This document shows, piece after piece, positions 4,849 to 35,616 of a DNA stretch of 64,000 bases. This stretch comes from Candidatus Eiseniibacteriota bacterium (lineage in GTDB: Bacteria > Eisenbacteria > RBG-16-71-46 > CAZAMP01): contig OZ245046.1 of NCBI GenBank assembly GCA_965224245.1, positions 384,001 through 448,000 of the forward strand, written 5' to 3'. The notes beneath the pieces were generated by a model. The model was given only the letters and a program-made list of their open reading frames with translations, was not told the DNA's origin and made no database searches. How positions within the stretch are numbered: the stretch's first letter is position 1; every line of letters starts with the position of its first letter. The position numbers and the translations under genes are program-made.

Positions 4849-5631
4849 TCAGTACGTGGCCTTCAGCCGGCCCCAGCTCAGCACGTCGACGGGGTTCGTC
4901 GGCGGCGTGCATCGGCACCCGTTTGCGTTGAGCTCGGCCCAGTCTCCGGTGCCACCGAACCCGGCGGCGCCGGTTCCGTTGTGGTACTGCACACCGTTAG
5001 ACGGGTTGATCGCCGCGGCAATCTCACCGTCCAGGTACGCGCCGTCCTGAAGGCCGTCGCCGTGCAGGACCAGGATGTCCCGATACGCGCACGCGTAGTC
5101 CTCTACGTCGTCGTGCATGCAGTCTCGACCGTCGCCGGCGTAGCTCGACTCACTGAAGTGGTTGTCTCCGGTCGGGGACGTCACCGGGCAGTAGTCGGCA
5201 CTCATGATCGCGCCGGTCAGGTGGTTGCCGCGAGTATAGGTGCAGAACACCCCGAGGATCACGTTTCCGCCCAGGTCCGCGTACGCTGCGAGAACGTCTC
5301 CGTATCGCTCGGCTTCGAAGAACGGGAAGTTGGCCCACACGATGACGCAGTCGTAGTCGAGCAGGAGGTCGAGCGAGGGGGTACCCGCTCGTGCGTCGTA
5401 GTAGTCACACGTGCCGCCGATCTCGGTGGCGATCCGCGCGCGATAGCTCGGATCGTCACCGTGTGACGGTGCGTACAAAACGGCCGGTCCGACGTCCATC
5501 CGAACGGTGTCGAGGCGGTGTCCCTGGAACACGAATGCATCCTCACCGCCGACGTTGACCGGCTGGAGATCTGCCACCGCAGGTCCGACCACGACCGCGA
5601 GCAAGGCGAGCACGTGCAGAGGGCCGTTCAT
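4849..5631 (-). CDS. Secreted hypothetical protein with C-terminal SWGRLKATY tail
   Basis: AAGGAGG RBS before ATG 5631; signal peptide MNGPLHVLALLAVVVGPAVA; ends PVDVLSWGRLKATY*. Confidence 0.8.
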   Translation of the reverse strand: MNGPLHVLALLAVVVGPAVADLQPVNVGGEDAFVFQGHRLDTVRMDVGPAVLYAPSHGDDPSYRARIATEIGGTCDYYDARAGTPSLDLLLDYDCVIVWANFPFFEAERYGDVLAAYADLGGNVILGVFCTYTRGNHLTGAIMSADYCPVTSPTGDNHFSESSYAGDGRDCMHDDVEDYACAYRDILVLHGDGLQDGAYLDGEIAAAINPSNGVQYHNGTGAAGFGGTGDWAELNANGCRCTPPTNPVDVLSWGRLKATY

Positions 5632-5690
5632 CGCAGCCTCCTTCGAGGTGACCTCAATCGTACCAGACAGACCGTGGCGTCGGGGGGACA

Positions 5691-7712
5691 TCAATCTCGC
5701 ATGGCGAGTCCCTCGACGTGCTCGGTGCCGACCGGAACGACGAGGCTGCTGCCCTCGAGATCGTCGCCGATCGGCTCCGCTCGTCCGCCCAGATGCTCCG
5801 CCAGGAACGACTCCACCACGGCGCGGAACGCGAGATCGTTGGCCGGGCGCCGGAGCCCGTGTCCCTCGCCCTCGAACAGCAGGTAGGTCACCGGGACGTC
5901 GTTGGCCGTCATCGCGGCGACCATCTGCTCGGCCTCCCGCACCGGCACGCGCGAGTCGTTCTTGCCCTGCATGATGAGCAGCGGTCGCCGGATCTCGGCC
6001 GCGTCGAAGAGCGGTGACTGGGTGCGGAGCTCCGCGCGGCCCGCATCCGTCGTGGCGTCGCCGACCCGCAGGAGATACTCGCGCCGAAACGCACGCCAGT
6101 ACTCGGGAAGACCATCGTAGAGGGTGATGAGACTCGTCGACCCCGACGAGCTCACGGCACACGCAAATCGCTCCGGACTCGTCGTGAGGACGCGCAGCGC
6201 GAAGTAGCCGCCGACCGACGCCCCCATCACGGCCATGCGCTCGCGGTCGGCGATCCCGACGGTCACCGCCCAGTCCGCGGCATCCACGATGTCGTTGGTC
6301 ATGCGTCGGCCCCACTGGCGGTTGCCGGCATTCAGCCTTGCCTTTCCGCGGCCGGTGGAGCCGCGATAGTTGGGGAGGATCACGGCGTATCCGCGATTCG
6401 CGAGCCACTGACCGAAAAGATCGAATCCCACCCGGGAGCGATCCCACGGTCCTCCGTGCGGCAGCACGATCGTGGGAACGGGCACGTCGGGGCGTCCGTT
6501 CCCGTCGGCGTCGGCGCCGTGCGGAAGCACCACGAACACGGTCATGTCGTGACCGTCGCGCGTGCGAACCGTCTCCGGACGCATCGGCGTGAAGGCGTGT
6601 CCGTCGAGCGCGGGGTAGACGTCGACGAGCGTCCGGAAGCGAGCGGGCATCCGTTCCACGAGGACGTAGCTCGCGGGGTCGGTGCCACTTCGATAGGCGC
6701 TGAACGCGGATCCGTCGCCGGTGAAGGCGGTGATGTCGATCCGGCCGGGCAGCTCGGACTCGAGCCGATCGAAGACATCCGTCCAGTCCGGATCCAGAAC
6801 GTGCCATCGCTGGTGACCGTCATCCACGGCGTAGGCGATCGGTGCACCCGTTCGCGGGTGGAGCGCGACGTCCACGACGTCGAGCGCGTCGTGTGCGGCG
6901 ACGAGCGCCCGCGTGCCTCTGGCCACGTCGATCTCCACCAGCGCATACGTGTCGCGCCGGTGGGCGTCCAGCGCGAGGAACCGATCGCCGTCCTCGTGAA
7001 ATCCGAGGATCTCGAAGCCTCGCGCGTCCGCGAACGGGATCGTGAGCAGCGGGACGACCTGACCGGAGTCGTCGAGACGGTCGAGCCGGACGTCGCCCGT
7101 CGAGGGGTCGGTGTACCGGAGGAGGCGGAGGCGGCCCCGGCGATCGACGTGAAGGCCCACGTAGCCGGCGTCATTCTGGAAGAGCGAGACACGCTCCCCG
7201 GTCACCAGGTCGATCCGGTAGAGGTCCGCCCGCTCGGGAACGCGGTCGTTCATCGAGACGATCACGTGATCCGGGTCGTGAGCGGAGAGGGCTTCGATCG
7301 TGGCGCGCTCACCCTCGCCGGGAGTCAGCGGTCGGAGCGAGCCGGCGTCGAGATCCAGACACTGGATGCGGAAACGCTCGTCACCGGCGTTGTCGGACAG
7401 GAAGAGCAGGCGCCTGCCATCGGGCGTCCACCGGGGATCGAAGACTCCGAGCGACGAGCGCGTCAACGGACGCGCGTCGTCCGCGTCGTCCCCGACGGAC
7501 GCCATCCAGAGGTTCGGCACCCTCTCCAGCGGCGCGATGAACACGTAGCGATCGCCGTCCGGGCTCATCGTCACGTCCTGCGGCGCGGCCTGGGACGAGA
7601 ATGCGGTGCGAGGGATGAGCGGGACATCCACGCCGATGGCGTCGGGGTGCGATGTCGCGGACGCGAGCACCGGGACGACGGAGGTCAGGACGAGGAGCGA
7701 TCGGCATGACAC
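5691..7712 (-). CDS. S9 family (prolyl oligopeptidase/acylaminoacyl) peptidase, exported
   Basis: Signal peptide, propeller N-terminus, HGGPW, NYRGSTG, GASVGG nucleophile, ND.RV Asp, EGHG His. Confidence 0.92.
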   Translation of the reverse strand: MSCRSLLVLTSVVPVLASATSHPDAIGVDVPLIPRTAFSSQAAPQDVTMSPDGDRYVFIAPLERVPNLWMASVGDDADDARPLTRSSLGVFDPRWTPDGRRLLFLSDNAGDERFRIQCLDLDAGSLRPLTPGEGERATIEALSAHDPDHVIVSMNDRVPERADLYRIDLVTGERVSLFQNDAGYVGLHVDRRGRLRLLRYTDPSTGDVRLDRLDDSGQVVPLLTIPFADARGFEILGFHEDGDRFLALDAHRRDTYALVEIDVARGTRALVAAHDALDVVDVALHPRTGAPIAYAVDDGHQRWHVLDPDWTDVFDRLESELPGRIDITAFTGDGSAFSAYRSGTDPASYVLVERMPARFRTLVDVYPALDGHAFTPMRPETVRTRDGHDMTVFVVLPHGADADGNGRPDVPVPTIVLPHGGPWDRSRVGFDLFGQWLANRGYAVILPNYRGSTGRGKARLNAGNRQWGRRMTNDIVDAADWAVTVGIADRERMAVMGASVGGYFALRVLTTSPERFACAVSSSGSTSLITLYDGLPEYWRAFRREYLLRVGDATTDAGRAELRTQSPLFDAAEIRRPLLIMQGKNDSRVPVREAEQMVAAMTANDVPVTYLLFEGEGHGLRRPANDLAFRAVVESFLAEHLGGRAEPIGDDLEGSSLVVPVGTEHVEGLAMRD

Positions 7713-7730
7713 GAGGGTGTCCTCCCGAGG

Positions 7731-8375: not shown

Positions 8376-8382
8376 GGGATGG

Positions 8383-8411
8383 ACAATAAACGAAACAGAA
8401 TTCGGTTTCAA
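8383..8411 (-). promoter_or_regulatory. Sigma70 promoter for tetR-S9 peptidase, overlapped by a palindromic operator
   Basis: Minus strand TTGAAA-17 nt-TATTGT-7 nt-ATG; imperfect palindrome GAAACAGAATTCGGTTTC at 8392-8409. Confidence 0.75.
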
Positions 8412-8627
8412 GACTCGAATCGGATCCTCCGGAGCCGCATCCACCGCATGGTCTGGTAGTCGCCGTCGTCGGGCATCCTGGGCGTTTCCCGGCACATCGC
8501 GGGGCGCCTCCGAGGACTGACGCCGCGGTTCCGCGGACAGGTTCGTCGGGTCCCCCGCGGCCAGCGGGTGGGTCGCCGGCGTGGTACGATTCCACCCGAA
8601 ACGCGCCGACCCCCGGGCCGTTCCGGT

Positions 8628-8649
8628 CGTCACGTCACGTCACGTCACG
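8628..8649 (+). repeat. (CGTCA)4 simple sequence repeat directly upstream of an RBS
   Basis: cgtca cgtca cgtca cgtca cg followed by GGAGGGAGGG and ATG 8664. Confidence 0.85.
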
Positions 8650-8663
8650 GGAGGGAGGGTCCC

Positions 8664-11162
8664 ATGTACCCCCGATCGCGGCTTCACTGGCGGCCCGTCA
8701 GCCGCATCACGTCGCGCGCCACCGCCGTCTTGCTCGCGATGCTCGCCGTCGCCGCCTCCGGCCGCCCGGCCGGCGCGGGCGATGCCTTCACGCTCACGGG
8801 ACACGTCGAGTTCGAAGACGGATCTCCCGCGCCGGGGGCGTTCGTCTCCATCAACGGGCTCGACGTGGCCGTCCACGTCGATGAGACCGGCGCGTTCGAG
8901 ATCTCCGGCCCTGCGGGCCGGGTCGAGACCCTCGTGCTCGACGCGGTGTCGCGCCGCGACGAGATCAGCCAGGTCGCCTCGCTGGAGCTCGACGGTGCCA
9001 CGACTCAGGGCACCATCGACGTCGGACTCGTGAGCCTCGCCCCGACCTGCGACGGTCCGGTGGTCACGTTCGAAGGCGAGTTCTTGCCGGGGCGAATCTA
9101 CGCCCTCGACCGCGAGTACGACACCGTGGTGGCCGTCGGTCGGGAGGAGAGCGACGACGAGGTGTTCCGGGTCTTCGACATCGCCGACCCGGCGAGCCCC
9201 GTGCTCGTGTCCACGATGCCGGTCGATGGATACGTCGACGACGTGATCCTCGAGGGGGCGGTCGCCTACTTCACCGAGTCGGGTGCCGGCGTGCACGTCG
9301 TGGACTGGGCCGCCCTGCCCATGCCGATCTCGCTGTCGATTGCACCGACCGGCCCGACACCGGGGCGCCTGGTGCTCCTGGACGCGACGCACCTCCTGGT
9401 CTCCGACTGGAACATGGGGCTCAGCGTCGTCGACGCCAGCGATCCCACCGCGCCGATCGTCTACCAGTCTCCGCTGGTCGGAGCGTATGGCGAGTACATC
9501 GGCTACCACGCGGTCCGCGACGGGCTCGCCTTCCTGGCCACGGCATCCGGTCTCGAGATCTACGATCCCCTGTCCACGCTGATCCTGGGATCGCTGGCCC
9601 TCCCGGGCGACGAGCCCGCCACCTCGGTGACCCTCGACGACGATCTCGCCTACATCACGTCGAAGGCGGGACTCGCCATCGCCGACGTGGCGGACCTCGC
9701 GGCGCCGGTGATGATCTCGTGGTCCCCCTTGCTCATGAGCGAGGACGCCGACGTCGAGAACGGCCTGGCCTACCTCGTCGGCTCCACGTTCGCCGGCGGT
9801 TACCTCATGATCGTCGACGTGTCCGATCCCATGACTCCAGTGCTGCGCTCCTTGCTCGAAGCGGGCTACCACCATCGCGCGTCGCTTCAGGTCTCGGGAG
9901 GTCGGGCCCTCGTCGCCGCGCTGAGTCGCGATTTCATGTTCGCCGATCTCCGGGATCCCATTGGAAACGGCATCGCCGGGTTCATCGAGATGCCCTCCAA
10001 CCTGAAGCCCACTGCACTCGTGGACGGCATCCTGGCCGGACCCACGCGGTACTACCCCGGGATGGCGTTCGTCGACGTCTCCGACATCCGGGCGCCGGTC
10101 CTGAAGTCCTGGGTCATGACCGGCGACTACAAGAACGACATCGAGATCCACGGCGGGAACGCGTTCGTGGCCGGCGACGGGGGTGTGCAGATCTTCGACG
10201 TCACCGATCCCACCAGTCCGAGCGAGCTCGCGTACATCACGACCGGCTCCCGCACCGGGCAGGTGGACGTGCACGGCGACCTGGCCTATCTCGCCGCCAA
10301 CCAGCTCCGGATCTACGACGTTTCCGATCCGTCCAATCCCGGTCTGATCTCCTCGTTCGGGGTCGGCGGCGTGGCCAACGACCTGAAGATCAAGGACGGC
10401 GTGGCCTACGTCTCCACGGGGCTCGATCTGGCGATCGTCGACGTCGAGAACCCCTGGCTACCGCATCTCATAGGGGAGCGCCCGGGCTCCAGCGCAAGTG
10501 TGGACGTGCTCGACGAGACCCTCCTCGTAGGCGACGAGCTGGGCTACACGGACGTCTACGACGTGAGCGAGCCGGCGAACCCCTCGTTCCTGACGTCGAT
10601 GGAGTTCATCGGAGACCTCTCCGTGTCCGGGAACCGCGTGGCGTCGACCCGGAGCCTCGGCCGTCTCGAGATCTTCGACCTGAGCGACCCGATGGAGCCG
10701 GTCCTCGTCGAGTCGATTCCAGGGTGGGGCTACCTCTACGTGGCGGGCGCGCTGCTCACGCGAGAGAACCTCTACATCGGCACCGGGACCGGCAGCGGCG
10801 CGGCCCGGTTCGCCCTTCAGATCAACGACTTCATGTGCAGGGGTGACGACATCGGGGGCACGGTCTCGGTCCCCGGACAGTCCCTCGAGCCGTTTCGGCT
10901 GGAGGTGTTCGGCGCCAATCCGTTCCGATCCGGAGTCGAGATGGAAATCGTCCTCGGGTCGACGATGCGACTCCATGCCGGCATCTACGGCGTGAGCGGC
11001 CGGCTGGTGTGGTCCGAGTCCGCGACGCTGGCCGCGGGGCGGCACCGCTTCCGCTGGGATGGACGGAGCTCCGCCGGCGAGAGCGCGCCTCCCGGCGTGT
11101 ACTTCATCCGGGTGGAGAGTCCAATCGGTGACGTGACCCAGAAGCTGACGCTCGTGAGGTAG
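8664..11162 (+). CDS. Secreted LVIVD-repeat protein with N-terminal carboxypeptidase-regulatory-like domain and C-terminal FlgD-Ig domain
   Basis: Signal peptide; many L.IVDVSDP repeats; ANPFRS...WDGRS...PPGVYFIRV. Confidence 0.88.
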   Translation: MYPRSRLHWRPVSRITSRATAVLLAMLAVAASGRPAGAGDAFTLTGHVEFEDGSPAPGAFVSINGLDVAVHVDETGAFEISGPAGRVETLVLDAVSRRDEISQVASLELDGATTQGTIDVGLVSLAPTCDGPVVTFEGEFLPGRIYALDREYDTVVAVGREESDDEVFRVFDIADPASPVLVSTMPVDGYVDDVILEGAVAYFTESGAGVHVVDWAALPMPISLSIAPTGPTPGRLVLLDATHLLVSDWNMGLSVVDASDPTAPIVYQSPLVGAYGEYIGYHAVRDGLAFLATASGLEIYDPLSTLILGSLALPGDEPATSVTLDDDLAYITSKAGLAIADVADLAAPVMISWSPLLMSEDADVENGLAYLVGSTFAGGYLMIVDVSDPMTPVLRSLLEAGYHHRASLQVSGGRALVAALSRDFMFADLRDPIGNGIAGFIEMPSNLKPTALVDGILAGPTRYYPGMAFVDVSDIRAPVLKSWVMTGDYKNDIEIHGGNAFVAGDGGVQIFDVTDPTSPSELAYITTGSRTGQVDVHGDLAYLAANQLRIYDVSDPSNPGLISSFGVGGVANDLKIKDGVAYVSTGLDLAIVDVENPWLPHLIGERPGSSASVDVLDETLLVGDELGYTDVYDVSEPANPSFLTSMEFIGDLSVSGNRVASTRSLGRLEIFDLSDPMEPVLVESIPGWGYLYVAGALLTRENLYIGTGTGSGAARFALQINDFMCRGDDIGGTVSVPGQSLEPFRLEVFGANPFRSGVEMEIVLGSTMRLHAGIYGVSGRLVWSESATLAAGRHRFRWDGRSSAGESAPPGVYFIRVESPIGDVTQKLTLVR

Positions 11163-11200: not shown

Positions 11201-13393
11201 TCAGCGTGCGAGCAGCGTGATCCGTTCGGTGACCACCGACTGCCGGGACTCAACCTGTACGAAGTAGACACCGGGTGCGACCGCTTGCCCCGTGACGTTC
11301 GTGCCGTCCCAGACCAGAGATCCGCCGTGCGGCAGGCGCTTGCCGTTCGCGAGCGATGCGATGCGACGACCGGTGACGTCGAGCACGCGGACGGTGACCG
11401 GTGTCGTCGATCGGGCGTCGATCCACACACGTGAGCCCACCCTCGACGGATTGGGATGGACCCACGGCGTACGGGCCGGCATCACGGGCTCGACGCCGAC
11501 CCCGATCGTGACGTCGCATGCTGCATCGAGCAGCGTGATCCGTCCGTCGAAGCCGCCCGACGCGTAGACCCGCTCCTCGGCGACGGTGAGGAAGCGGGCG
11601 GGGGTATCCGTCGGGAGAAGCCCGACCGCTCGCGGAGCGGATTCATCGGAGACGTCGAAGATCTGGATGCCCGTGTCACCACCGGCGTAGAGGTGATGTC
11701 CCGCGAGCGTCAGCCCGTGCGCCTCGTGAAAGGCGCCCCCCAGGTTCCAGAGTGGGGATGCCGAACCCGGCGATGCGGTGTCGATCGCCTGGAGCGAGTT
11801 GATCAGGCTCACGAAGGTGACCGGGCCCAGATTGACCGGCGAGCTCGCCTCGAAGAGACGCATCGAGTCCGTGACGAGCGGCGAGGCGGGATCGGTCACG
11901 TCGACGACGTCGAGCCAGTTGCCGCCGGTCACCACCGCCACGCCATCGGTGACGTCCACGCCGTTTCCGGAGCCCGGTGAGAGGGCCGTGCTCGCGTGCA
12001 GCACGAGCGTCGCCGGAACCGCCACGTCGACGACGTGGAGGCTCCCGCCGCCGCCGACGTAGGCCAACCCGCCGTCCACGTCGATCGATCGCGGTGACGT
12101 CGGCAGGGCCAGCGTGCTCGTCACGACGGGTGCGGCCGGATCGGTCACGTCGACGACGCCGAGCCCCACGTCGGCGATCGCGGCCAGGATCAGGGGCCCC
12201 TCGAGATGCACGAGGTCCCGGACGTCGCCGATCGGTATGGTGGCCAGGATGACCGGGTCGTCGGGACTCGACCAGTCCACACTCCTGAGCCCATCGGTGC
12301 GGCCGGAGACGAAGACCGTCCCATCGAGATCCACGACCGAGCCCGCGAAGCCACCCACGTCGAGGGTCGCGTGTGGTGTGGGCAGCGGATCCCCGTCGAG
12401 GGCGAGCTCGAGGACCATGGAGACGTAGGAGCCCCAGTCGCCGCGCGCGACGGGCCGCTGGTCGACGACCGCGACGTCGTACAGCGAGAGCCCCTCGGGC
12501 AGCGGGAGCCGTGCCGTCACCAACGGCTGGGCGGGATCGGTCCCGTCGACTCGACGGACGGTGCCCCCGCCGATGGCGATCAGCTCGGCGCCCAGCATGG
12601 CGACGTCGGTCGCCGGCTCGAGCCACGTGCCGACGATGCCGGGATCGGACGGGTCGGCCAGGTCGACGACCCGGACGCCGCCGCTGCCGTGCGCGAGGTA
12701 GGCAGTGGCCTCCCCGGCGGCGAGATCCCAGATCGGGGGAAGGGGGGAGAGCGTGCCCACCTCCGATGGTGCCGCGGGATCGACGGCGTCGAAGACGACG
12801 AGGGCGTGGGTATTGGCGGTCACCTCGGCGCGGACGACGAGAACGTCTCCGACGACGTCCACGGCGAACGCGTCTCCCGGCACCATCGCATCCCCGGCCG
12901 CGACCGGAGCGAGAGGATCGCTCGCGTCGACGACGAGGAGGTCACCATTTACGATCACGTACAGCCACGTGCCGAGCTGCGCGAGGTCGTTCGCGTGATC
13001 CTCGAGGTCCAGCTCGCCCAGGGCGACGGGCGTTTCGGGGTCGCTCAGATCGGTCGTGAGGATGCGGTAGCGACACCCGTACTTGTCGCATCCCGAGACG
13101 GCGACATGGGCGAGGGTGCCGTCGATCGCCAGCCCCGTCACGGGGGCGCCGGCGTCGAACGAGGACACGAAGCGAGCGGCCGCGCCGACGTCTCGGATCA
13201 CGACGCTGCCGAGACGACCCTCGTAGGTCGTGCCGTACAGGAGGAGGGATCCGGACGAGGCAAGACGCGTGATCGTCGAGCCAGTCGCGAACCCTCCCGC
13301 GAAGCGCTGATGGCTCGGAACGTCGACGCAGGCCGCATCCACGGACGCGGCGAATGAGAGCATGCCCAGCAGAGCGGCGTAGCGCGTCTTCAG
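11201..13393 (-). CDS. Secreted LVIVD-repeat protein with FlgD-Ig CTD (start CTG 13393 or TTG 13411)
   Basis: LVVDASDP/LDVVDVTDP repeats; HPNPSR..WDGTN..APGVYFVQV; GGAGG RBS 5 nt before CTG. Confidence 0.87.
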   Translation of the reverse strand: MKTRYAALLGMLSFAASVDAACVDVPSHQRFAGGFATGSTITRLASSGSLLLYGTTYEGRLGSVVIRDVGAAARFVSSFDAGAPVTGLAIDGTLAHVAVSGCDKYGCRYRILTTDLSDPETPVALGELDLEDHANDLAQLGTWLYVIVNGDLLVVDASDPLAPVAAGDAMVPGDAFAVDVVGDVLVVRAEVTANTHALVVFDAVDPAAPSEVGTLSPLPPIWDLAAGEATAYLAHGSGGVRVVDLADPSDPGIVGTWLEPATDVAMLGAELIAIGGGTVRRVDGTDPAQPLVTARLPLPEGLSLYDVAVVDQRPVARGDWGSYVSMVLELALDGDPLPTPHATLDVGGFAGSVVDLDGTVFVSGRTDGLRSVDWSSPDDPVILATIPIGDVRDLVHLEGPLILAAIADVGLGVVDVTDPAAPVVTSTLALPTSPRSIDVDGGLAYVGGGGSLHVVDVAVPATLVLHASTALSPGSGNGVDVTDGVAVVTGGNWLDVVDVTDPASPLVTDSMRLFEASSPVNLGPVTFVSLINSLQAIDTASPGSASPLWNLGGAFHEAHGLTLAGHHLYAGGDTGIQIFDVSDESAPRAVGLLPTDTPARFLTVAEERVYASGGFDGRITLLDAACDVTIGVGVEPVMPARTPWVHPNPSRVGSRVWIDARSTTPVTVRVLDVTGRRIASLANGKRLPHGGSLVWDGTNVTGQAVAPGVYFVQVESRQSVVTERITLLAR

Positions 13394-13716
13394 GGGCGCC
13401 TCCCTCGCCAAACAGACCCAGACTTCAACGTTTGATGGTCGAGAGTATAGCTCGGCGGGGGCTCAGGTTGCGACGTTCGATTCTCGGGCATCACTCACCG
13501 GGACCATGCCGGCATCCCGATCGGGCTCGCGCGCATGACCGATGATCGCAATCGTCGGGGCGCGCTCCCGGACGCGTGCCGACGGACGTCGGACGCCGGC
13601 GCGCCGACCTGTGGTACCGTGCGAAGCGGTCGTCTCGGGTCTGAGCGCGCAGACGACGAACACGCGAGTCGTCGATCGACCTCGCATCACGAGATCCGAG
13701 CCCCCGTGGGAGTCCT

Positions 13717-19469: not shown

Positions 19470-19683
19470 GTCGTACCTCCCGAACAATGAAACGTTGGAA
19501 TGTGACCGACGGGCCGCACGGCGGACGGGCCCTGGGCGGTACATCGAATCGTATGGAGATGATCAGTCGGGCAACGATGTCGACGAGCGATGCGCCGCGG
19601 GCGACCCCTGTGTTGCCGCTTCCCGCCGGACTCTCATGCCGCAGACCGGAGCAAACATGATCCCGCCTGATCGGGTCGGGGAG

Positions 19684-19887: not shown

Positions 19888-20160
19888 ATGAACGTCCGTA
19901 CGTCGCCTCGCGCCGCGGCTCTGCCGCCGGTCGCGGCCCAGGCAGCCTCCGGGGAAGCGCTACTCACCGTCAGCCGTCTCCCCGACGGGCCAGGGCCCGC
20001 ACGCGCCCCGGAGTGGACGCCCGCCGACGTCGTCTCCGGTGCCCCGTTCGAGGCCGCGTTCGCGCTCCTGGGCGACCTCACCTCGGTCCCGGTCGAGACG
20101 GCGAGCTGGGCGCGTCTGAAGTCGCTCCACGGCCCACCGTCACCTCGCGGTGGCGACTGA
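19888..20160 (+). CDS. Small ORF (90 aa) or gene remnant carrying the SWARLKSLH tail, upstream of ECF sigma
   Basis: Extended -10 TGcTATACT 7 nt before ATG; contains VPVETASWARLKSLH; stop 2 nt before the ECF GTG. Confidence 0.5.
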   Translation: MNVRTSPRAAALPPVAAQAASGEALLTVSRLPDGPGPARAPEWTPADVVSGAPFEAAFALLGDLTSVPVETASWARLKSLHGPPSPRGGD

Positions 20161-24196: not shown

Positions 24197-24793
24197 TCAT
24201 GTGTCGGGTCGCCCGCCGGGCTCATCCGACATCGCATGACGGAGCCACATCTTCGCGAACCACCACTCCCGCTGCACCGTGCGCCGTGAAAGATCGAGGA
24301 CATGCGCGATCTCGTCCTCGGTGAGCCCGCCGAAGAAACGGAGCTCGACGACCTGAGCGGCGCGTGCGTCCTTCTCGGCCAGCCGATCGAGCGCGTCGTC
24401 GAGCTCGAAGAGATCCACGTCGGCCCGGGCGAGGACGTTCAGACGCTCGTCCAGCGTGACGCGCTCCCAGCCGCCGCCGCGCTTGGCCGCCGCGCGCTCG
24501 CGGGCGTGGTCGACGAGAACCTGTCGCATCGCACGAGCGGCGACCCCGAAGAAATGGGCCCGGTCCTCCCATCGCAGGTCCGTTGCACCGACGAGCCTCA
24601 GGTAGGCCTCGTTGACGAGCGCGGTCGGCTGCAGCGTGTGTCCGGGTCGCTCGCGATGCATCAGGCCGGATGCGAGTCCGCGAAGCTCCCGTTGCACGGC
24701 GGCGAACAGGCGCTCGGCCGCCCCGGGGTCGGCGTTCGGCCCGGAGGCGGCGCTCAGGAGCTGCGTCAGATCGGGCGGCTGTGCGGACGTCAC
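24197..24793 (-). CDS. ECF sigma factor, TIGR02999/ECF43-like
   Basis: HTLQPTALVNEAYLRL, HFFGVAARAMRQVLVDHAR, KRGG, VELRFFGGL. Confidence 0.92.
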   Translation of the reverse strand: MTSAQPPDLTQLLSAASGPNADPGAAERLFAAVQRELRGLASGLMHRERPGHTLQPTALVNEAYLRLVGATDLRWEDRAHFFGVAARAMRQVLVDHARERAAAKRGGGWERVTLDERLNVLARADVDLFELDDALDRLAEKDARAAQVVELRFFGGLTEDEIAHVLDLSRRTVQREWWFAKMWLRHAMSDEPGGRPDT

Positions 24794-25022
24794 GTCGTCG
24801 GTCTCTCATGGGGTGTGGTGTCTTCGCTCTCGCCCGGCGCGCCCGATCGGGCCGAGACGCTGCGGACGGAGCGGATCGAGAAAGGCAGGAAAAGTGTACC
24901 CGGCGTGACGCTTCCGGACAGGTTTCTCCGCAGGACAGGGTGGAAGGACGAAGTCGTTGACCCGTAAGTCTCTGGAATTCAGCGATCTCCGGAGATTCAC
25001 CTGAACCGTGAGGAGATCCTCC

Positions 25023-25903: not shown

Positions 25904-26632
25904 ATGCACGCCCATCCGCACACCGGTCGACATGCGCGGTCGCTCGCCCTGGTCGGCGCGCTGCACGTGGTCCTCACCGCGGCCGTCGGGTCCGGGTCAG
26001 CCCATGCGGGAGACGTGTCGTACATCATCCGCGGCACGGCGATGGGGGTGTATCACCAGCACATCGACGTCTGGGACGACACCTATGCGGCCATCGAGGA
26101 CGCCGGCGTCACCGTGAACGGGATCGTGATCCCACACGCCGGGGGCGCTCGCTACTCCGGAACGCTCGACGCGGCGCTGGTGCCGGGCGACCCGGTCGAG
26201 CTCGTGGTCGAGATCGGGGCCTCCACGGTGACTGCGACCGACGTCGTCCCCAACACCGCGGTCATCACGGTTCCATCCGATGGTCAGCTGATCCCCTTCG
26301 AGGAGCCGCTCGTCGTGGAGTGGACCTGCGAGAACGATCCCGACCGGTTCATCATAAGCCCCTACCCGTGCGACGGGAACTGCAACACCGACGTGGACGG
26401 CGCCCTCCGGAGCGCCGTGATTCCCACCGACCAGTTTCCCGCCGACGAGCCGGTGCAGATCCGCATCTACTCGTACAACGACGGCACCTACGATGGCCCG
26501 GCGCACGAGAGCTGCGCGATGGCGCTCCGCTACTGGCAGGGCCCGGGTCCGTTCGTCTCGGTGGATCCCGAGACGCCCGCGACCCGGACCTCGTGGACGA
26601 GCGTGAAGGCCCGCCATCGCGACGGCGAGTGA
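25904..26632 (+). CDS. Secreted hypothetical protein with C-terminal SWTSVKARH tail
   Basis: AAGGAG RBS; signal peptide (..GSAHA/GD); ends TPATRTSWTSVKARHRDGE*. Confidence 0.78.
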   Translation: MHAHPHTGRHARSLALVGALHVVLTAAVGSGSAHAGDVSYIIRGTAMGVYHQHIDVWDDTYAAIEDAGVTVNGIVIPHAGGARYSGTLDAALVPGDPVELVVEIGASTVTATDVVPNTAVITVPSDGQLIPFEEPLVVEWTCENDPDRFIISPYPCDGNCNTDVDGALRSAVIPTDQFPADEPVQIRIYSYNDGTYDGPAHESCAMALRYWQGPGPFVSVDPETPATRTSWTSVKARHRDGE

Positions 26633-28337: not shown

Positions 28338-28342
28338 CCGGT

Positions 28343-29989
28343 TCAGTGCAGCCGAACCACGCGTGTGACGCGGGACACGCCGTCGACGACGGCGCGGGCG
28401 AAGTAGGTGCCGGGCGCGACCGGGTTGCCGTCGCCGTCCCGACCGTCCCAGCCGACGCGATCGAGCGCGGCCGGCGACGTCAGGCGCCGCACCACGCGAC
28501 CGCCCACGTCCAGGATCGTCACGTCACCACTCGCGCCGGGGACGTGGATCTGGACGAGGCTGCGGAACGGGTTCGGCTCCACCCGGAGGCCGAGCATGCT
28601 CGAGCCGGAGGTGGGATCACCCGCGGCCAGAAGATCTCCCAGCGTGCCGTCGGACAGGATCTTCTTCGCGTGGACGTCGACGTTCGTGGCACTGATGGGG
28701 CGCTCGAACACGATGATGCTCGCGTCGTCGGTGGTCTCGCAGATCTGGGGTGCCACGTACGCCGAGAGTGACGACGTGGAGACGACCTCGCCGCCCGGCG
28801 TCCACTGCTCCACGCCCGCCGCGTCGTACGTCTGAGCCATGAAGACCGCGTTGAGCGAGGGCCACGTGATCACGGCCTCACCGGCGCCGTTGACGCGCAC
28901 CCCGGGGCCGATGCTGGGCAGCCTGGGACCGACCACGACGCCGCCGCCCCAGCCCTGGGCACCCGCCCCCGACACGTGCGACAGCGCGATGACCCAGCTC
29001 CCGGCGCGCGTGTCGGCGTAGCCCACGTAGGCACCACCGCTGCCGTCGGCGGCCACGACCTGGCCGAACTTCGCGTTGGTGACAGGGCCGACCTCGAGAT
29101 CCGCGCCGCCGTTCCACAGCGTCGCTCCGCTGGCGTCGAGGCGCTGGGCCTTCAGATCCAGCCACGTGGAGCTCCAGGTCACGATCACGCCGCCCTGTCC
29201 GTCGGCGACGATCTCCACGTTCGGGTAGTTGGTGCCCGTGGTGCTGATGGTGACGTAGCCCCACTGATCGACACCGGCGGCGTCGATGCGGCGCGCGAGG
29301 ACCGATCCGATGGCGAGGTCGTTGACCACGAGGATGACCCCACCTGCGCCGTCGCTGGCCAGGCGCACGTTCCGCTCGGCGCCCGAGGTCGTGAAGAGCG
29401 CTCGCCCTTCCGCGGCCCACAGGCGATTGCCGTCCAAGTCCACCCGCTGGCCGTAGATGTCCTCCTGGTTGTAGCGACGCGTGTCGTTCCAGGCGATGAA
29501 CGCGCCGCCGGCGGGATCGGTCAGGATCCGCGGCCGGTACTGCTGTCTCAGCTCCTCACAGATCTCGAGGCCGTCGGCGACCCAGAGCTTGTTGCCGGCC
29601 GCATCGAAGCGCTGGCCGTAGACGGCGCCGCTCGCCACGCGGGAGTCGCCCCACACGCAGATGACGCCGCCGGCCCCGTCGCTCGCGATCCGCGGATCGA
29701 ACTGATTGGCGCCACCATCGCCGGCGAGCACGCCGTCGGGGGTCCACATCGCGTCTCCGTCGGCCGAGAGTCGCTGCACGTAGGTTCGATACACGCTGCC
29801 CCGGTAGTCCTCCCAGGCGACGTATGCGCCGCCCGTGCCGTCGGGGATCGTGTGGATCTTCCGCTGGTCCTGGGTGGCGGCGGTCACGACGTTGTCGACC
29901 GCGGGATCGGTCGACCACGTCGCCAGGCTCGGCGTGCTCGCGGCCAGGGAGAGGACCGCCAGGGCGATCGATCGGATCGGGACGGACAT
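28343..29989 (-). CDS. Secreted beta-propeller repeat protein with FlgD-Ig CTD
   Basis: GGAGG RBS; signal peptide; repeats DG.GG....W.D.R...YGQR.D..G...W; EPNPFRS..WDGRD..VAPGTYFAR. Confidence 0.88.
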   Translation of the reverse strand: MSVPIRSIALAVLSLAASTPSLATWSTDPAVDNVVTAATQDQRKIHTIPDGTGGAYVAWEDYRGSVYRTYVQRLSADGDAMWTPDGVLAGDGGANQFDPRIASDGAGGVICVWGDSRVASGAVYGQRFDAAGNKLWVADGLEICEELRQQYRPRILTDPAGGAFIAWNDTRRYNQEDIYGQRVDLDGNRLWAAEGRALFTTSGAERNVRLASDGAGGVILVVNDLAIGSVLARRIDAAGVDQWGYVTISTTGTNYPNVEIVADGQGGVIVTWSSTWLDLKAQRLDASGATLWNGGADLEVGPVTNAKFGQVVAADGSGGAYVGYADTRAGSWVIALSHVSGAGAQGWGGGVVVGPRLPSIGPGVRVNGAGEAVITWPSLNAVFMAQTYDAAGVEQWTPGGEVVSTSSLSAYVAPQICETTDDASIIVFERPISATNVDVHAKKILSDGTLGDLLAAGDPTSGSSMLGLRVEPNPFRSLVQIHVPGASGDVTILDVGGRVVRRLTSPAALDRVGWDGRDGDGNPVAPGTYFARAVVDGVSRVTRVVRLH

Positions 29990-30289
29990 GGTTCCTCCAA
30001 CGAAGGCTGAGACTCATGGCCCGGCTGGGCGAAAGGAGTCGGTCGTGCCTGAAGAACACCTCTAACCCGAGGAACCGCACACCCGATGGCCCGGAAACCC
30101 CGAGTCCGGCTCACGCCGAGCTAGAAGAGTGGAACGGGCACCGGAGACCGCATCGATCCGGGGCAATATCGAGATGTGTTTGGTAGAATGGATACGTTCG
30201 CCGTCCGGGACCGACGAGACCCGGGCCTGTTCTTCGAGTCGGCATCCTCGCCCGTGAGCTTCGCTCGCGTGATCCATCAGGAGTGCTCG

Positions 30290-32443
30290 ATGACGATCTC
30301 CCGCGACGCCGGCAGGATGGCGGCTCTCGGAGTCTGCCTCGCGACGGTCTCGTTGCCGGGCCCGACCGCCGAGGCCGAGTGCCTCTCGTACCGCGACCGA
30401 CTTCACGTCTCCGATCTCGTTCCGACCGGCTACACGCCGGGTGCGCTGGAGCGGGTCGGGACCACACTCTACCAGGCCGACGGTCAGCTGGGGCTCTTCC
30501 TGTTCGACGTCGCCGACCCGAGGCATCCGGTCGCGCTCGGCGCCGCCACGTCGCTCGAGCGGGCCTCGTCGCTCGCGGTCGAGGGAAGTGTGGCGATGGT
30601 CGCCGGACGCCTGGGCGGCGAGTACGGGTTCTTCTTCCTCGACGTGACGGCGCCGACGGCCCCGTCGATCCTCGGGAGCGTGATCTGGACCGACTACACC
30701 TCCAGAGGCGCTCTCTCGGGCGGTCGGGCCTACGGAACCTCCCGCGACGAGCTGATCGTCATGGACGTTGCCGACCCGAGCGCACCGTCGGTGCTGGGCA
30801 CGATCGGTCTCGCCGCAGATGCCAACGCATTCGCCGTGGATGGCGATGTCGCGTACGTCCACGTGGAGGACACCGGGCTTGCGGTGTACGACGTCTCCGA
30901 CCCGTCGTCACCGACCCAGCTCGCGCTCGTCGCGGAGCTGACCTTCGACGCGCGCACCGTGGCGCTCACGGGGGGAAAGCTCTGGGTCATCGATGACCGC
31001 CTCCAGGTCGTGAACGTCGAGGATCCCTCCCACCCGGTGATCGAGGAGACCCTGACGTTCGACGATCCCATCTGGGGAGTCCACGAGGACGGAGCGATCA
31101 GGTACGTCTACGGCGACTACGTCAGCGCGGCGCTCTCCGTCGACGAGGTCACCGGTGCGATCCAGGTGATTGCGTCGTGGGCGAGCCCCACGACGCTGGA
31201 CATGCTCGTCGTCGACGACGTGGCGATCTCCACGGCCCCGCACTATGCGGGGCTGGCGATCACAGACGTGGGCCGACTCGTGGCCGCCGAGCCGATCGCC
31301 AGCTACGGGACGGGCAACCAGAATCGGTACTCGGCCATGCAGTCGCCGTACATCTACAAGTCCGACGCGGACGTGGGCCTTCGTATCATCGACGTCGGCG
31401 ATCCTCTGCATCCGGTCGAGGTGGAGAACGTCCGCGACGTCTCGATCGATGGCTCGGCCGGGGTGGCCGTGGATGGGGACGTGGTGTACCTCGCCGCGGC
31501 GGACGGGATTCACGCGTTCGACGTGACCGATCCCACCGAGCTGCCGCTCCTGTGGTTCTTTCCGTGGTCGAGCAACGTGTTCGATCTGGTCAAGACGGGC
31601 GATCACCTCGTGTTCACGAGCCAGTCGGCGGTGGGGGTGCTGAAGCTCGGCGGTGCCTCGCCGGTGCTCGAGAGCGAGCTCGCCTACGACTGGGCGTGGA
31701 GCCTCACGGTCCACGGGGACTACGTCTACGTGTCGGACACCGCGGGCAGCGTGAAGCAGCTGGTCGTCCTCAAGCGCAACGCGGTCGGCCGGCTGGCGCT
31801 CTGGAACGTGGTGAACCTCGGCGTGATCATCCGCGAGATGGCGATCTCGGGAGACTACGGGTTCTTCGGCGGGCTCGGGGTCATGGACCTCTCCGATCCG
31901 GTCGACCCGTCCATCGTCGCGGGCTGGCCCGACCCCACGTCGTGGCTCTTCGAGGGAAAGGTGCTCCTGCACGACGACGTCGCGTACGTGTCGATGTTCC
32001 GCGACGGTCTCCAGCTGTTCGACGTCCGCGATCCGCTCGCGCCGACACCGATCGGTCGCGCTCGAACGTACCTGGCGGGGGACCTGCACACCGATGGCGA
32101 CTACGTGTTCGTGGCGTGCGAGGATCCGGGCCTCATCGCGTATCCCACGGCCTGCGGCCCGGCGGTCGGCGTCGAGGGGGTCGTCATGCAGATCCCTCCT
32201 CTCGCGTCACCCAATCCTTTCCGGGCACTCACCACGTTTCCGCTGGCAGAGGCGGGGGGGATGCTCGAGATCTTCGACGTGGCGGGCGGCCGTGTCGTGC
32301 GGCTGCGCGCGCCCGTACGGGGAGATCGGGTCACGTGGGACGGTCGCGACTCTGCCGGACGCAACGTGCCGCCGGGAGTCTACTTTGCGCGGGAGCCCCG
32401 AGCCGCCGGTGGACGCACGGTGCGGATCGTCCGGCAGCCGTGA
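30290..32443 (+). CDS. Secreted LVIVD-repeat protein with FlgD-Ig CTD
   Basis: AGGAG RBS; signal peptide then AECLSY; LIVMDVADP repeats; SPNPFR..WDGRD..PPGVYFAR. Confidence 0.87.
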   Translation: MTISRDAGRMAALGVCLATVSLPGPTAEAECLSYRDRLHVSDLVPTGYTPGALERVGTTLYQADGQLGLFLFDVADPRHPVALGAATSLERASSLAVEGSVAMVAGRLGGEYGFFFLDVTAPTAPSILGSVIWTDYTSRGALSGGRAYGTSRDELIVMDVADPSAPSVLGTIGLAADANAFAVDGDVAYVHVEDTGLAVYDVSDPSSPTQLALVAELTFDARTVALTGGKLWVIDDRLQVVNVEDPSHPVIEETLTFDDPIWGVHEDGAIRYVYGDYVSAALSVDEVTGAIQVIASWASPTTLDMLVVDDVAISTAPHYAGLAITDVGRLVAAEPIASYGTGNQNRYSAMQSPYIYKSDADVGLRIIDVGDPLHPVEVENVRDVSIDGSAGVAVDGDVVYLAAADGIHAFDVTDPTELPLLWFFPWSSNVFDLVKTGDHLVFTSQSAVGVLKLGGASPVLESELAYDWAWSLTVHGDYVYVSDTAGSVKQLVVLKRNAVGRLALWNVVNLGVIIREMAISGDYGFFGGLGVMDLSDPVDPSIVAGWPDPTSWLFEGKVLLHDDVAYVSMFRDGLQLFDVRDPLAPTPIGRARTYLAGDLHTDGDYVFVACEDPGLIAYPTACGPAVGVEGVVMQIPPLASPNPFRALTTFPLAEAGGMLEIFDVAGGRVVRLRAPVRGDRVTWDGRDSAGRNVPPGVYFAREPRAAGGRTVRIVRQP

Positions 32444-32507
32444 GTTCCGGCGCCTGCGGTGCCGACCTGCACTCGGGCGGCCGGTCGCGCGGACGCGCGC
32501 CGTGCCC

Positions 32508-34769
32508 TCATCGGAGCACCACGAGTCGACGAACCGAGCGGACTCCATCCACGAGGACGTCCAGGTAGTACACGCCGGCGGCATGGCCCGTGCTTGTCCA
32601 CGTGATCACGTGGCGCCCGCGCGGCAACGGTCCGTCGTGGATCACCTCCACGCGCCGACCGGCAACGTCATGGACACGCGCACGGACATCCCGGGATCGC
32701 TCGAGGCCGATCGCCACGCGCACCCGATCCGACATGGGGCTGGGAGATGCCGGTCCGATGGTGAAGAGGCGCGGTGGATCGAACGCGGGAGGATCCGGAT
32801 CGGTCGGTGTGGCGTCGTCCTCGCACTGGAGGGGTCGCACCTCCACGCGAGTCGGGCTGTTGCCGAGGACGAACAGGAGCTCGTCGGTCAGGCTCACGGC
32901 GGCGGTCACGTAGATCTCGAAGTTGCCGGTGACGGTGGGCGCGATCGGATCGGTGACGTCGAGTACGTGGCAGCGGGCGTAGGCGGTGGTCGGGTTTTTC
33001 TCGGTCACGTAGGCTGTGTGGTCCAGGACGCGGACGCCAATGGCCTCGTCGGGTGTCGGCCACGATGCGACCGGATCGGGCTCGGTCGGGTTCGAGACGT
33101 CGAAGACCAGGAGCCCGCCCAGGACGTCGGCGACGAGGAGATGCACCCCGGAGAGCGCCACGCCGCTGGCCGAGAACGGAACCTCGACGACGTTCAGGAT
33201 CTCGGCGTTCGATGGGGTCTCGACGTCGACGACCAGAACCCCCATCCGGGCGGCCGCCACGTAGGCGATGGATCCCGAGAACGCGAGGTCGGTCACCGGC
33301 TCATCGAGCGCGAGCACCCGGGTCAGGTGCGGATCGGCAGGGGACGTGACGTCGAAGATGTGCAGCTCCCGCGCGCGAGGCGTGTCACGCTCGGCCCCCA
33401 CGTAGAGGTGTGACCCTCGCACGGCGATCACGTCGTATCGTAGCGACGACGATCGCCCGCCGACGACGTGCGGGTCCCCGGGCGAGGCGACGTTCACGAT
33501 CTGGAGTGAGAGGGAGTCCCCGAAGGCCGGGGTCCCGCTCACGAAGGCATGGTCACCCGACACGCGGATGTGTCTCGGTCTCAGATCCAGCGGGGAGTCA
33601 CCGATCGTGACCGGGCTCTCGACGTCGGAAACGTCGACCACCTGGAAGCGGTCGTCGTCGTCTCCGACGAAGGCGAGACGATCACGGACGTCCAGCGCCT
33701 TGGTTCGAAAGGCAAACGTGCCCAGGACCGGCGCCGTGTCGGGTCGGGCGATGGCGATCACGTGTAGTCTCGGCACGTAGACCGGCTCGTACCCCTCGTC
33801 GATCACGTACGCGAACCCGTTCGACACCGCCACCCCCGAGGCCTGATCCGGCACCCAGGTTCCGCCGACGAGCGTCGGCGTCGTCGGGTCGCTGACGTCG
33901 ACCGTCTCGAAGCCGCTCTGAAAGCCGTTGGCGAGGAAGGCGACGTCGCCCTGGACCGCGACGCTCCTGCCCGAGCCCGACTCGAGGTGGCCCAGAAGCG
34001 TCGGCGTCGTCGGGTCGCCGACGTCGATGATGTCGAGGCCGTTCCCCACGACGTAGGCGAGAGATCCCGAGACGACCAGGTCCGCCACAGGCCCCAGGTC
34101 GGTGAGCTCTCCGACGACGATCGGATCGGTCGGCGTGCTCACGTCGACGACGTGGAGGGTCGAGGAGCCGAGGAGATACGCGTACGTCCCCTCGAGTGCG
34201 ACCCGGAACGTCGGGAGGCTGACGGTTTGCACGATGAACGGCGACTCGGGATCCGAGACGTCGACCACCCGGAGTCCCCAGCCACTGTCGGCCACGTACG
34301 CGAACCCGGACGAGACGGCGACGTCGACCGCGTCCCCCGGCGTCGCGACCGACCCCAGGGGTCGGGGATCGCCGGGGTCGGAGAGATCGACGATCTCGAG
34401 GCTGGAGACGTCGGCGACGAACCCGGTGGCGCCATCCAGCGCGAGGCCCGCCGCCCAGCTCGGTGTGTCCAGAGCCGCGAGGATCATGGGGTCGAGCGGG
34501 TCGGAGACGTCCACGACCAGGAGCCCCTCCGGGCCTCCGGCGACGTAGACGGTCTCATCAGCCGCGACCACGTCGAACGGCGCGCCGAGCTCCAGGCTGC
34601 TCACCCAGTGCAGGTAGCTCGCGTAGTCGATGCACTCCGCGACCGCCGATGGCGCGAGCGACCAGAGGATCGACGTGCCCACGATCCACGACCGCGTGAG
34701 CCCGGTGGCCGCGTACGTGCGCGCGAAGGGGATCTCGGGTCGGTACGTGGGGACGAGCGCGCGCATCAC
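32508..34769 (-). CDS. Secreted LVIVD-repeat protein with FlgD-Ig-like CTD
   Basis: Signal peptide then AECIDY; LLVVDVSDP repeats; SPSPM..DVAGRRV..AAGVYYL. Confidence 0.87.
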   Translation of the reverse strand: MMRALVPTYRPEIPFARTYAATGLTRSWIVGTSILWSLAPSAVAECIDYASYLHWVSSLELGAPFDVVAADETVYVAGGPEGLLVVDVSDPLDPMILAALDTPSWAAGLALDGATGFVADVSSLEIVDLSDPGDPRPLGSVATPGDAVDVAVSSGFAYVADSGWGLRVVDVSDPESPFIVQTVSLPTFRVALEGTYAYLLGSSTLHVVDVSTPTDPIVVGELTDLGPVADLVVSGSLAYVVGNGLDIIDVGDPTTPTLLGHLESGSGRSVAVQGDVAFLANGFQSGFETVDVSDPTTPTLVGGTWVPDQASGVAVSNGFAYVIDEGYEPVYVPRLHVIAIARPDTAPVLGTFAFRTKALDVRDRLAFVGDDDDRFQVVDVSDVESPVTIGDSPLDLRPRHIRVSGDHAFVSGTPAFGDSLSLQIVNVASPGDPHVVGGRSSSLRYDVIAVRGSHLYVGAERDTPRARELHIFDVTSPADPHLTRVLALDEPVTDLAFSGSIAYVAAARMGVLVVDVETPSNAEILNVVEVPFSASGVALSGVHLLVADVLGGLLVFDVSNPTEPDPVASWPTPDEAIGVRVLDHTAYVTEKNPTTAYARCHVLDVTDPIAPTVTGNFEIYVTAAVSLTDELLFVLGNSPTRVEVRPLQCEDDATPTDPDPPAFDPPRLFTIGPASPSPMSDRVRVAIGLERSRDVRARVHDVAGRRVEVIHDGPLPRGRHVITWTSTGHAAGVYYLDVLVDGVRSVRRLVVLR

Positions 34770-34848
34770 GGGCTTCAGCCGACGAAGGCGGCCCGGCGGC
34801 CGTTCTTCGCGCCGATGCCACGCACGGCCTCAGGCTCGTGGTGCATGG

Positions 34849-35616
34849 CTAGTCATACAGGCTCCTCAGCCCGCCCCATGTGGTGCGCTCGGTGGGCACC
34901 TCGCGACAGTCGCCGACGTCGATCGTTCCGAAGTACCAGTCGAAGCAGCAGTCGGCACAGCCGTCGAAGCCACAGACCACGACGCCGTCGGTACCCCCGG
35001 GCGACGTGTCTCCCACGCCATACTCGTAGGAGGGGCACAGGCTGAAGATGGCCGCCTGACAGTCGGCGACATCGCAACGCCCGATGCGGGGATCGCACGC
35101 CACCGAGAGCGTCCCGTCGCTTCCAGCATCGACGACGAGGAAGCCGATGCGCGTGAGCCCGTCGGGATTCTCGGTCACCATGCGACATCCGCCGGACCAC
35201 TGCGTCGCGTAGCCGCTGCCGGAGGCGGGCCAGTCGGGCTCGGGAATCTCGGTCCCTCCAGTGCATCCGGTCCACGTGCCGACGGATACCGTAGCCGGAT
35301 AATCGAGCCCGAACTGGATCCCGCCGATACCGCCGGGCGCCCCCGGACCAGATCCGTCGGGCACGCCGTCCACGAGCAGCCACGCATAGTTCGGCTGTCC
35401 GCCCGCGTCCACGAACGACGGCTGGATCGCGTCGCACGAGAGTGCGGCGTCGGCCACCGAGGCCTCGTTGCACCCGGAGTAGCTGGGAAGGGTGAAATGG
35501 ACGTTGATGCTGTACGGAAAGAGATCCCGAGTGCCGCCTCCGGCCACGACGTCGGTCGACGCCAACGACGCGATCGAGGCCAGGGCGACGACCCCGCCGA
35601 ACGAGAGCGTCCTCAT
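34849..35616 (-). CDS. Secreted Cys-rich protein with C-terminal TWGGLRSLY tail
   Basis: AAGGAG RBS; signal peptide; many Cys; ends VPTERTTWGGLRSLYD*. Confidence 0.8.
   Translation of the reverse strand: MRTLSFGGVVALASIASLASTDVVAGGGTRDLFPYSINVHFTLPSYSGCNEASVADAALSCDAIQPSFVDAGGQPNYAWLLVDGVPDGSGPGAPGGIGGIQFGLDYPATVSVGTWTGCTGGTEIPEPDWPASGSGYATQWSGGCRMVTENPDGLTRIGFLVVDAGSDGTLSVACDPRIGRCDVADCQAAIFSLCPSYEYGVGDTSPGGTDGVVVCGFDGCADCCFDWYFGTIDVGDCREVPTERTTWGGLRSLYD

Follow-up and report, generated by a model that had tools for sequence, protein, structure and literature searches.

Many exported proteins of a Candidatus Eiseniibacteriota bacterium end in a short conserved peptide built around an invariant tryptophan, which we call the tail. 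The tail is a real, strongly selected and phylum-wide terminal tag, an alternative to the C-terminal domain (CTD) of the secretion system of type IX (T9SS). It came to light in a window of 64,000 nucleotides, positions 384001-448000 of contig C1, in a genome of 6.94 Mb with roughly 69% GC. An initial annotation of this window had pointed out four unrelated open reading frames (ORFs) ending in a near-identical tail. All four were located by translation (4849..5631, 19888..20160, 25904..26632 and 34849..35616), and after removal of the last 35 aa they fall into four different BLAST groups. It had further proposed a second sorting signal alongside the T9SS-type CTD; that the tail acts as another terminal tag of this sort is borne out by the enrichment of signal peptides among tail proteins, by the exclusion of the CTD and by swaps of the two tags on paralogous passengers. 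Other parts of its interpretation did not hold, and overall it is partly supported.

The tail is concentrated at the ends of proteins

A six-frame translation of the whole genome was searched with the position-blind regular expression [ST]W..[LVIM][KR][AS].[YHF]. Of its 98 matches, 82 are no more than 15 aa away from a stop codon, 7 are at 16-50 aa and 9 beyond. About 1.4 matches near a stop would be expected under an even spread, and the observed number is 58 times as high. The proteome-wide check for C-terminal enrichment that had been suggested for this motif thus came out positive. A hidden Markov model (HMM) of 24 positions was then built from the 82 near-stop seeds and run on 70160 stop-to-stop ORFs. 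At E<1e-3 it gave 86 matches within 20 aa of the stop vs 4 beyond, and between 1e-3 and 0.1 another 26 vs 3. The 112 tail ORFs considered here are those with E<0.1 and a match within 20 aa of the stop, irrespective of length; the 110 with at least 100 aa form the working set, outside of which some further, diverged tails exist.

The consensus reads [TV]-P-[VTI]-x3-[ST]-W-[GSA]-x-[ILV]-[KR]-[SA]-x-[YFH]-R-stop, with a final arginine that is frequent, not constant. Its core is [ST]-W-[GSA]-x-[ILV]-[KR]-x-x-[YFH], usually led in by T-P-V-x3. Conservation is high for the proline (98%), the tryptophan (100%) and the S/T (99%), K/R (99%), I/L/V (97%) and Y/F/H (95%) positions. This strong constraint suggests a specific reader. 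The lysine is replaced by arginine in 12% of the copies, the net charge is about +1.8, and the motif is followed by a variable 0-15 residues, and the last residue of the protein is arginine in 54 of the 110 tails. A Pro/Val-rich linker had been described in front of both tags. The stretch before the tail does not fit this description beyond the conserved T-P-V, and the linker before the CTD is Pro/Ala-rich.

Tail proteins are unrelated and mostly exported

Compared without their final 35 aa, the 110 tail proteins sort into 48 BLAST groups: families of 25, 17, 14 and 5 members, five pairs and 39 singletons. A Pfam search with 20 representatives assigned VWA, multihaem cytochrome c, right-handed beta-helix, AhpC/TSA and DUF7901 domains and left 14 of the 20 without a family; the bodies of the assigned proteins are soluble domains. 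If the shared ending were due to common descent, the tail would be the conserved last strand of one paralogous family, and the three large families of 25, 17 and 14 members could be taken as a hint in this direction. Against it stand the 48 groups, whose dissimilar folds include VWA, multihaem cytochrome, beta-helix and thioredoxin-like ones, the four groups of the four window proteins, and paralogues that share a body and differ in their tag (see below). We regard common descent as extremely improbable.

Tail proteins are short, with a median of 243 aa compared to 768 aa for CTD-bearing ORFs. By a crude test, 87 of 110 tail proteins and 157 of 200 CTD ORFs have a signal-peptide-like start, as against 211 of 600 control ORFs. 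The enrichment among signal-peptide proteins that had been proposed as a check is therefore present, and several of the 23 misses among the tail proteins have a visible signal peptide. A lipobox was found in 4 and a Tat motif in none of the 110 proteins. A lipobox as a third alternative tag in this genome was considered and rejected: among 18 untagged paralogues it is present in no more than 2, and several of these paralogues carry diverged tails. A scan of 24 tail proteins against NCBIfam (E<=0.1 to 1) gave no sorting-signal model, and in none of these 24 was the tail itself covered by a Pfam or NCBIfam model. Literature searches turned up no description of the tail either, including in passages of PMC11495043. 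This agrees with the earlier statement that no characterised machinery is known for it, as far as the searches made go.

Tail and CTD exclude each other on the same passengers

For the comparison with T9SS cargo, a CTD HMM was built from the genome's own matches to PF13860 and TIGR04183, for each of which 150 of more than 400 candidates passed. It recognised 473 ORFs with a CTD of the FlgD-Ig/Por_Secre_tail type, 428 of which end within 10 aa of the stop. This is a very large predicted set of T9SS cargo. The mutual exclusion of the two tags, first proposed for the window, holds for the genome: none of the 112 tail ORFs carries a CTD, and no match to the tail HMM with E<0.1 was found inside any of the 473 CTD ORFs. 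An arrangement with a tail followed by a CTD was also not seen among the matches in a metagenome-assembled genome (MAG) labelled Krumholzibacteriia.

The same bodies are found with either tag. A CTD-bearing paralogue exists for 66 of the 110 tail bodies (E<1e-5), and in 20 cases the homology extends to within 25 aa of the tail linker in the one protein and to 22-39 aa before the CTD in the other. The clearest example is a pair of adjacent genes on the reverse strand of C1 at about 4291911-4295094, both encoding putative HExxH-type metalloprotease-like proteins. Up to '...LNYR..YD.V' the two share 52% identity over 324 aa; past this shared domain, one continues into the tail, the other into a linker and the CTD. 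They are a natural pair for comparing what each tag does. Since the same passengers can bear either tag, each tag most likely leads to a fate of its own.

The tail is found throughout the phylum

Searches of relatives and public data used the alignment of the tails (A1) as a profile. It matched 19 of 20 relatives (E<=0.01) and 81 of 101 sampled genomes of the phylum (E<=1e-5); the latter number includes an unpublished genome, G033, without which it is 80 of 100, and no claim is affected. In 13 of the 15 other sampled families every genome gave a match (76 of 76), as did the single relative from the bacterium's own family. The exceptions are family f8, with a match in 2 of 20 genomes, and family f17, with 1 of 3.

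Public genomes were also searched with a DNA pattern blind to stop codons. It gave at least 120 matches, and 119 of the 120 listed lie within 15 aa of a stop. Of 80 record titles listed, 36 name Eisenbacteria or Eiseniibacteriota, 39 give no phylum and 5 have other names. The Krumholzibacteriia-labelled MAG has 15 matches to the tail profile (E<=0.001), 14 of which were recovered in the stretches fetched (E<0.01), all of them terminal. MAGs labelled Udaeobacter, Acidiferrales, Woesearchaeota and Gemmatimonadota have 1-8 matches each, partly on single contigs, and these may be binning errors.

Among 1.84 billion representative proteins, 467 matched the tail (E<=0.001). In 148 of the best 150 of these, the match ends within 10 aa of the end of the protein, and a CTD is absent from all of the best 150. 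The full-length matches, 84 in number, fall into 38 groups, and 61 of them look exported. In the ESM Atlas, the tail matched only short unnamed Eiseniibacteriota clusters.

Copies of the motif away from the C terminus

One family of 14 proteins from outside the source genome (P0012, P0020, P0032, P0086 and P0162-P0171) has the core motif at varied positions. In 10 of them it is found both directly after the signal peptide and at the C terminus; 9 of these match the regular expression at both ends, and in P0032 the N-terminal copy was recognised by eye. Both terminal copies are conserved across members that are only 53% identical. Of the other members, two, with a lipobox, carry it behind both of their domain copies, between the domains and at the end; one, also with a lipobox, has four tandem copies at its end; and the fourteenth, P0171, has its sole copy after the signal peptide. 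The source genome has two homologues of this family, C1:2288997-2289719 and 5853888-5854529 on the forward strand, both with a lipobox and without a tail. A motif that is found at either end, internally and in several copies, in a family that is otherwise lipid-anchored, points to a docking or anchoring peptide and not to a signal that has to be a free C terminus.

The non-terminal copies lean towards attachment or docking over export or processing, as far as sequences can tell. Tentatively, and at close to an even chance, we read the tail as a short and modular address peptide, a linear docking motif bound by a component of the envelope, and not as a miniature CTD. Tail proteins would be exported by the Sec pathway, with the tail in the place of the roughly 80-residue CTD of T9SS cargo. 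A conserved component of the cell envelope, a putative protein or glycolipid partner, would then bind the tail non-covalently, and the bound tail would hold the exported protein at a defined site, on whichever side of the outer membrane that site may lie.

The search for a reader

A family of Ser/Thr kinases with TPR repeats was considered as the reader and rejected. It is the sole recurrent neighbour family, with 8 members near 11 tail genes. It has 72 paralogous members, paired with extracytoplasmic function (ECF) sigma factors, and 10 of them are located no further than 5 kb from a tail gene; the family looks regulatory.

Lineage f8 offered a phyletic contrast. Its genomes are small, 2.1-3.5 Mb, and have kept T9SS cargo with very few tails. 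The lineage retains CTDs, SprA, 8-9 PorV-like matches and 2-3 C25 peptidases, and the first survey gave 0-1 matches to the tail profile. The view that f8 is tail-free had to be given up: 1.2 Mb (38%) of one f8 genome holds three variant tails, TTWGxIKxxY[RKQ], all at the C terminus of signal-peptide proteins and none elsewhere in the 1.2 Mb examined. One of these proteins aligns from end to end with a tail protein of the source genome, at 32% identity. Judged by these sequences, the lineage is depleted and diverged in tails, not tail-free, and the f8 contrast therefore excludes no candidate, be it PorV-like proteins, C25 peptidases or PorP/SprF-type proteins. A best-hit table of 41 PorV-like ORFs, some of the picks being in the wrong frame, showed no clade of PorV-like proteins missing from f8. 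A search for DUF7901 in f8 gave no match and is uninformative, since the controls were matchless as well.

Arguments against docking, and a link to T9SS

Several points weigh against a docking motif. Position-independence rests on one family, whose tailed members are all from outside the source genome, and more than 98% of the tail copies are strictly terminal, as would also be expected of a signal that depends on a free end. The positional bias of the tail HMM is partly built in because its seeds were near-stop matches; the regular expression, the DNA pattern and the global profile search are blind to position. Gene calls, start sites and signal peptides come from crude in-house heuristics, and 35% of the control ORFs also score positive for a signal peptide. 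Neither gene neighbourhood nor phyletic contrast yielded a reader or receptor. Furthermore, 31 of the 110 tail genes have a CTD gene as direct neighbour vs 272 of 5000 random intervals, five times more often, and the tail is always accompanied by the T9SS: SprA (TIGR04189) is above the cut-off in 21 of 21 genomes, including the source genome. This adjacency and the constant co-occurrence leave room for a role linked to the T9SS.

In its strongest form, such a role would make the tail an ultra-short T9SS export signal, read by the type IX machinery or a PorV-type shuttle, with the proteins perhaps being released. Besides SprA and the clustering with CTD genes, the source genome offers the 473 CTD ORFs, PorV-like barrels and C25 peptidases, and the same passenger domains use either tag. 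The two tags also end alike, since a hydrophobic residue followed by arginine closes 37% of the CTD ORFs and 32% of the tail ORFs compared to 4% of the controls. There is precedent for small signals: passages of PMC11969387 describe 'short CTDs' of 40-51 aa in Prevotella intermedia and report that only the final 22 residues of Hbp35 are absolutely needed for secretion of GFP, and the abstract of PMC12618676 reports that different CTD types are served by specialised shuttle proteins. The two papers keep a minimal T9SS signal in consideration. However, the tail does not mimic the last CTD strand. With a position-specific scoring matrix of the last 8 CTD residues, the best windows scored -5.7 in tails, -5.1 in controls and +11.1 in held-out CTDs. 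In addition, no tail ORF matches the CTD HMM, the motif also occurs N-terminally, between domains and in tandem, as no known CTD does, and PorP/SprF-type shuttles turned up in just 7 of 41 genomes from the phylum. Altogether we consider a minimal T9SS signal rather unlikely.

For the shared hydrophobic-arginine ending, protection from tail-specific proteases is one possibility. The tail might then have no addressing role at all and be a protective cap against such proteases in the periplasm, or a shared small structural element, which would go along with an ending common to CTD proteins and with the predicted flexibility of the tail. But a cap does not need 15 constrained positions with an invariant proline and tryptophan, gives no reason for N-terminal or tandem duplication and does not lead one to expect the clean alternation with the CTD. 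It is very unlikely in our view. Recognition by PDZ domains or tail-specific proteases is also at odds with a distance to the carboxylate that varies by 0-15 aa and with the N-terminal and internal copies.

Physical properties and comparison with known signals

The initial annotation had taken the tail for an amphipathic Trp/Lys helix. This is not supported: the helical hydrophobic moment of the core (100 degrees) is 0.37 vs 0.32 (standard deviation 0.17) for control C termini. The strand-type moment is somewhat raised (0.49 vs 0.27, standard deviation 0.21). An AlphaFold2 model of the window protein 34849-35616 has a mean predicted local distance difference test (pLDDT) score of 58.5, with the last 43 residues below 50, and its short helix of eight residues in the tail (247-254, W-G-G-L-R-S-L-Y) is itself below 50. 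C-terminal amphipathic helices target proteins such as PBP5/DacA and MinD to the membrane. The tail resembles them in being short and terminal, rich in Trp, Tyr and basic residues and without a transmembrane segment; it differs from them in a moment that is not above controls and in a conservation far stricter than is usual for such helices. The earlier claim that no transmembrane anchor is present stands, the longest stretch free of charged or polar residues within the final 40 aa having a median of 6. The signal by which the beta-barrel assembly machinery recognises its substrates, a terminal aromatic residue on the last strand of a barrel, does not fit either: the last residue is arginine in 54 of 110 tails, and the bodies are soluble.

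Like the type A CTD of the T9SS (TIGR04183/PF18962, FlgD_ig PF13860), the tail is a C-terminal tag on many unrelated, Sec-exported passengers, preceded by a linker, in bacteria that have a T9SS, and both tags often end in a hydrophobic residue and arginine. It is, however, 15-24 residues long, compared to a folded beta-sandwich of 40-100 residues; it is not recognised by the family HMMs and lacks motifs B, D and E, the last of these being that of the final strand; and it can be N-terminal, internal or in tandem. Of the defining features of a T9SS CTD that were compared, namely a match to the family HMM, the conserved last strand (a basic and then aliphatic residues) and the translocon in the host, only the translocon is found.

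The tripartite C-terminal sorting signals LPXTG, PEP-CTERM, GlyGly-CTERM and MYXO-CTERM are a second point of reference; dedicated enzymes act on such signals, as do sortase on LPXTG, exosortase on PEP-CTERM and rhombosortase on GlyGly-CTERM. As in these, a short signature near the C terminus is found on many unrelated exported proteins of one lineage and is followed by basic residues. The tail differs in having no transmembrane helix after the motif and no NCBIfam model, and in not being restricted to the C terminus. A sorting enzyme was not identified, no search having been aimed at the sortase, exosortase or rhombosortase families. On a related reading, the tail would be a signal for processing or modification, recognised by a dedicated peptidase or transferase that might cut near T-P-V or modify the W or K, leading to removal of the tail or to covalent attachment. 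Such an enzyme could account for the invariant proline and tryptophan and the near-invariant K/R; the tolerated extension of 0-15 aa after the motif is reminiscent of a pro-peptide, and a signature, a short apolar stretch and basic residues together resemble a shrunken tripartite signal. Yet the short uncharged runs leave no membrane helix, no sorting-signal model was found in the 24 proteins scanned, and N-terminal and internal copies do not fit removal from the C terminus. A linkage specific for lysine is unlikely because arginine replaces it in 12% of the tails. We regard a processing signal as quite improbable.

Non-covalent surface anchors such as the GW modules of Listeria InlB and Ami, choline-binding repeats, SLH and LysM are folded domains or repeats, 20-80 aa long, and have Pfam models. 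They are terminal modules that keep exported proteins on the cell by binding polymers of the envelope, and their copy number varies, as it does in the 14-protein family with its 2-4 copies. The tail is unlike them in being linear, about 10-15 aa long, usually present once and without a family match. Taken together, the tail looks like neither an anchor in the membrane nor a tripartite sorting signal that is cleaved, nor like a CTD in miniature.

Tail genes in the window

The tail gene at 4849..5631 on the reverse strand encodes an exported protein of 260 aa without an assigned fold, a member of BLAST group 8, which has 2 members. Its motif, NPVDVLSWGRLKATY, lies at 4852..4896 (tail HMM E=0.0024), with the stop codon immediately after it. 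The gene is followed on the same strand by a small CTD gene (4180-4800, recognised by the CTD HMM). On its other side, a gene of the S9 prolyl-oligopeptidase type (5691-7730, reverse strand) overlaps a long wrong-frame ORF that masks the true start of 4849-5631.

The short ORF at 19888..20160 on the forward strand carries the motif VPVETASWARLKSLH at 20086-20130, followed by 9 aa (tail HMM E=1.2e-6). It had been listed on a par with the other three, and this needs revision. It has no signal peptide, its GC content at third codon positions is low in the upstream part, and its similarity to other tail proteins is confined to the final ~45 aa; these features make it a probable relic of a tail gene of the cluster-2 type. 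It sits just ahead of an ECF sigma factor gene (about 20170-20756, forward strand) and a gene for a Ser/Thr kinase with TPR repeats (20753-24100, forward strand; 1116 aa), which is one of the 72 paralogous kinases described above. A second ECF sigma factor gene, of the PF07638 type, follows at 24197-24805 on the reverse strand.

The tail gene at 25904..26632 on the forward strand encodes an exported protein of 242 aa with a signal-peptide-like start, again without an assigned fold and a singleton among the BLAST groups. The motif TPATRTSWTSVKARH (26573-26617, by translation) is followed by 4 aa (RDGE) and the stop codon. The fourth gene, 34849..35616 on the reverse strand, belongs to the largest tail family with its 25 paralogues and encodes an exported Cys-rich beta-sandwich protein of 255 aa; its motif VPTERTTWGGLRSLY (34855-34899, by translation) is followed by D and the stop codon. 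It is directly upstream of a T9SS-type cargo gene with LVIVD repeats and a C-terminal CTD (32508-34829, reverse strand; CTD HMM). Two of the window's tail genes thus directly adjoin a CTD gene. No Pfam or NCBIfam family matched any of the four window tail proteins.

Nine CTD proteins had been counted in the window; we find 10 CTD ORFs that overlap it (1-2183, 4180-4800, 8460-11162, 11201-13462, 16866-19562, 28343-30013, 30125-32443, 32508-34829, 36319-39186 and 43431-44645). LVIVD repeats are present in several of them.

Significance

Terminal address labels decide where exported proteins end up, and the known ones have led to machines such as sortase, exosortase and the T9SS. The label described here is carried by about 110 proteins in the source genome, is very short and strongly conserved, is spread through an uncultured phylum and, for the same enzymes, is used in alternation with the T9SS domain. 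The Eisenbacteria and neighbouring uncultured phyla might use an address code of two labels, in which the Trp tail has its own envelope receptor or machine and serves about 2% of the proteome; we put this forward as a possibility, somewhat below an even chance. A docking tag of 15 residues for the diderm envelope, if this is what the tail is, could serve for surface display. Knowledge of the tail would improve the prediction of protein localisation in these soil and sediment bacteria. The reader of the tail, once found, would reveal either a new mechanism of envelope targeting or anchoring or an unexpectedly minimal T9SS signal.

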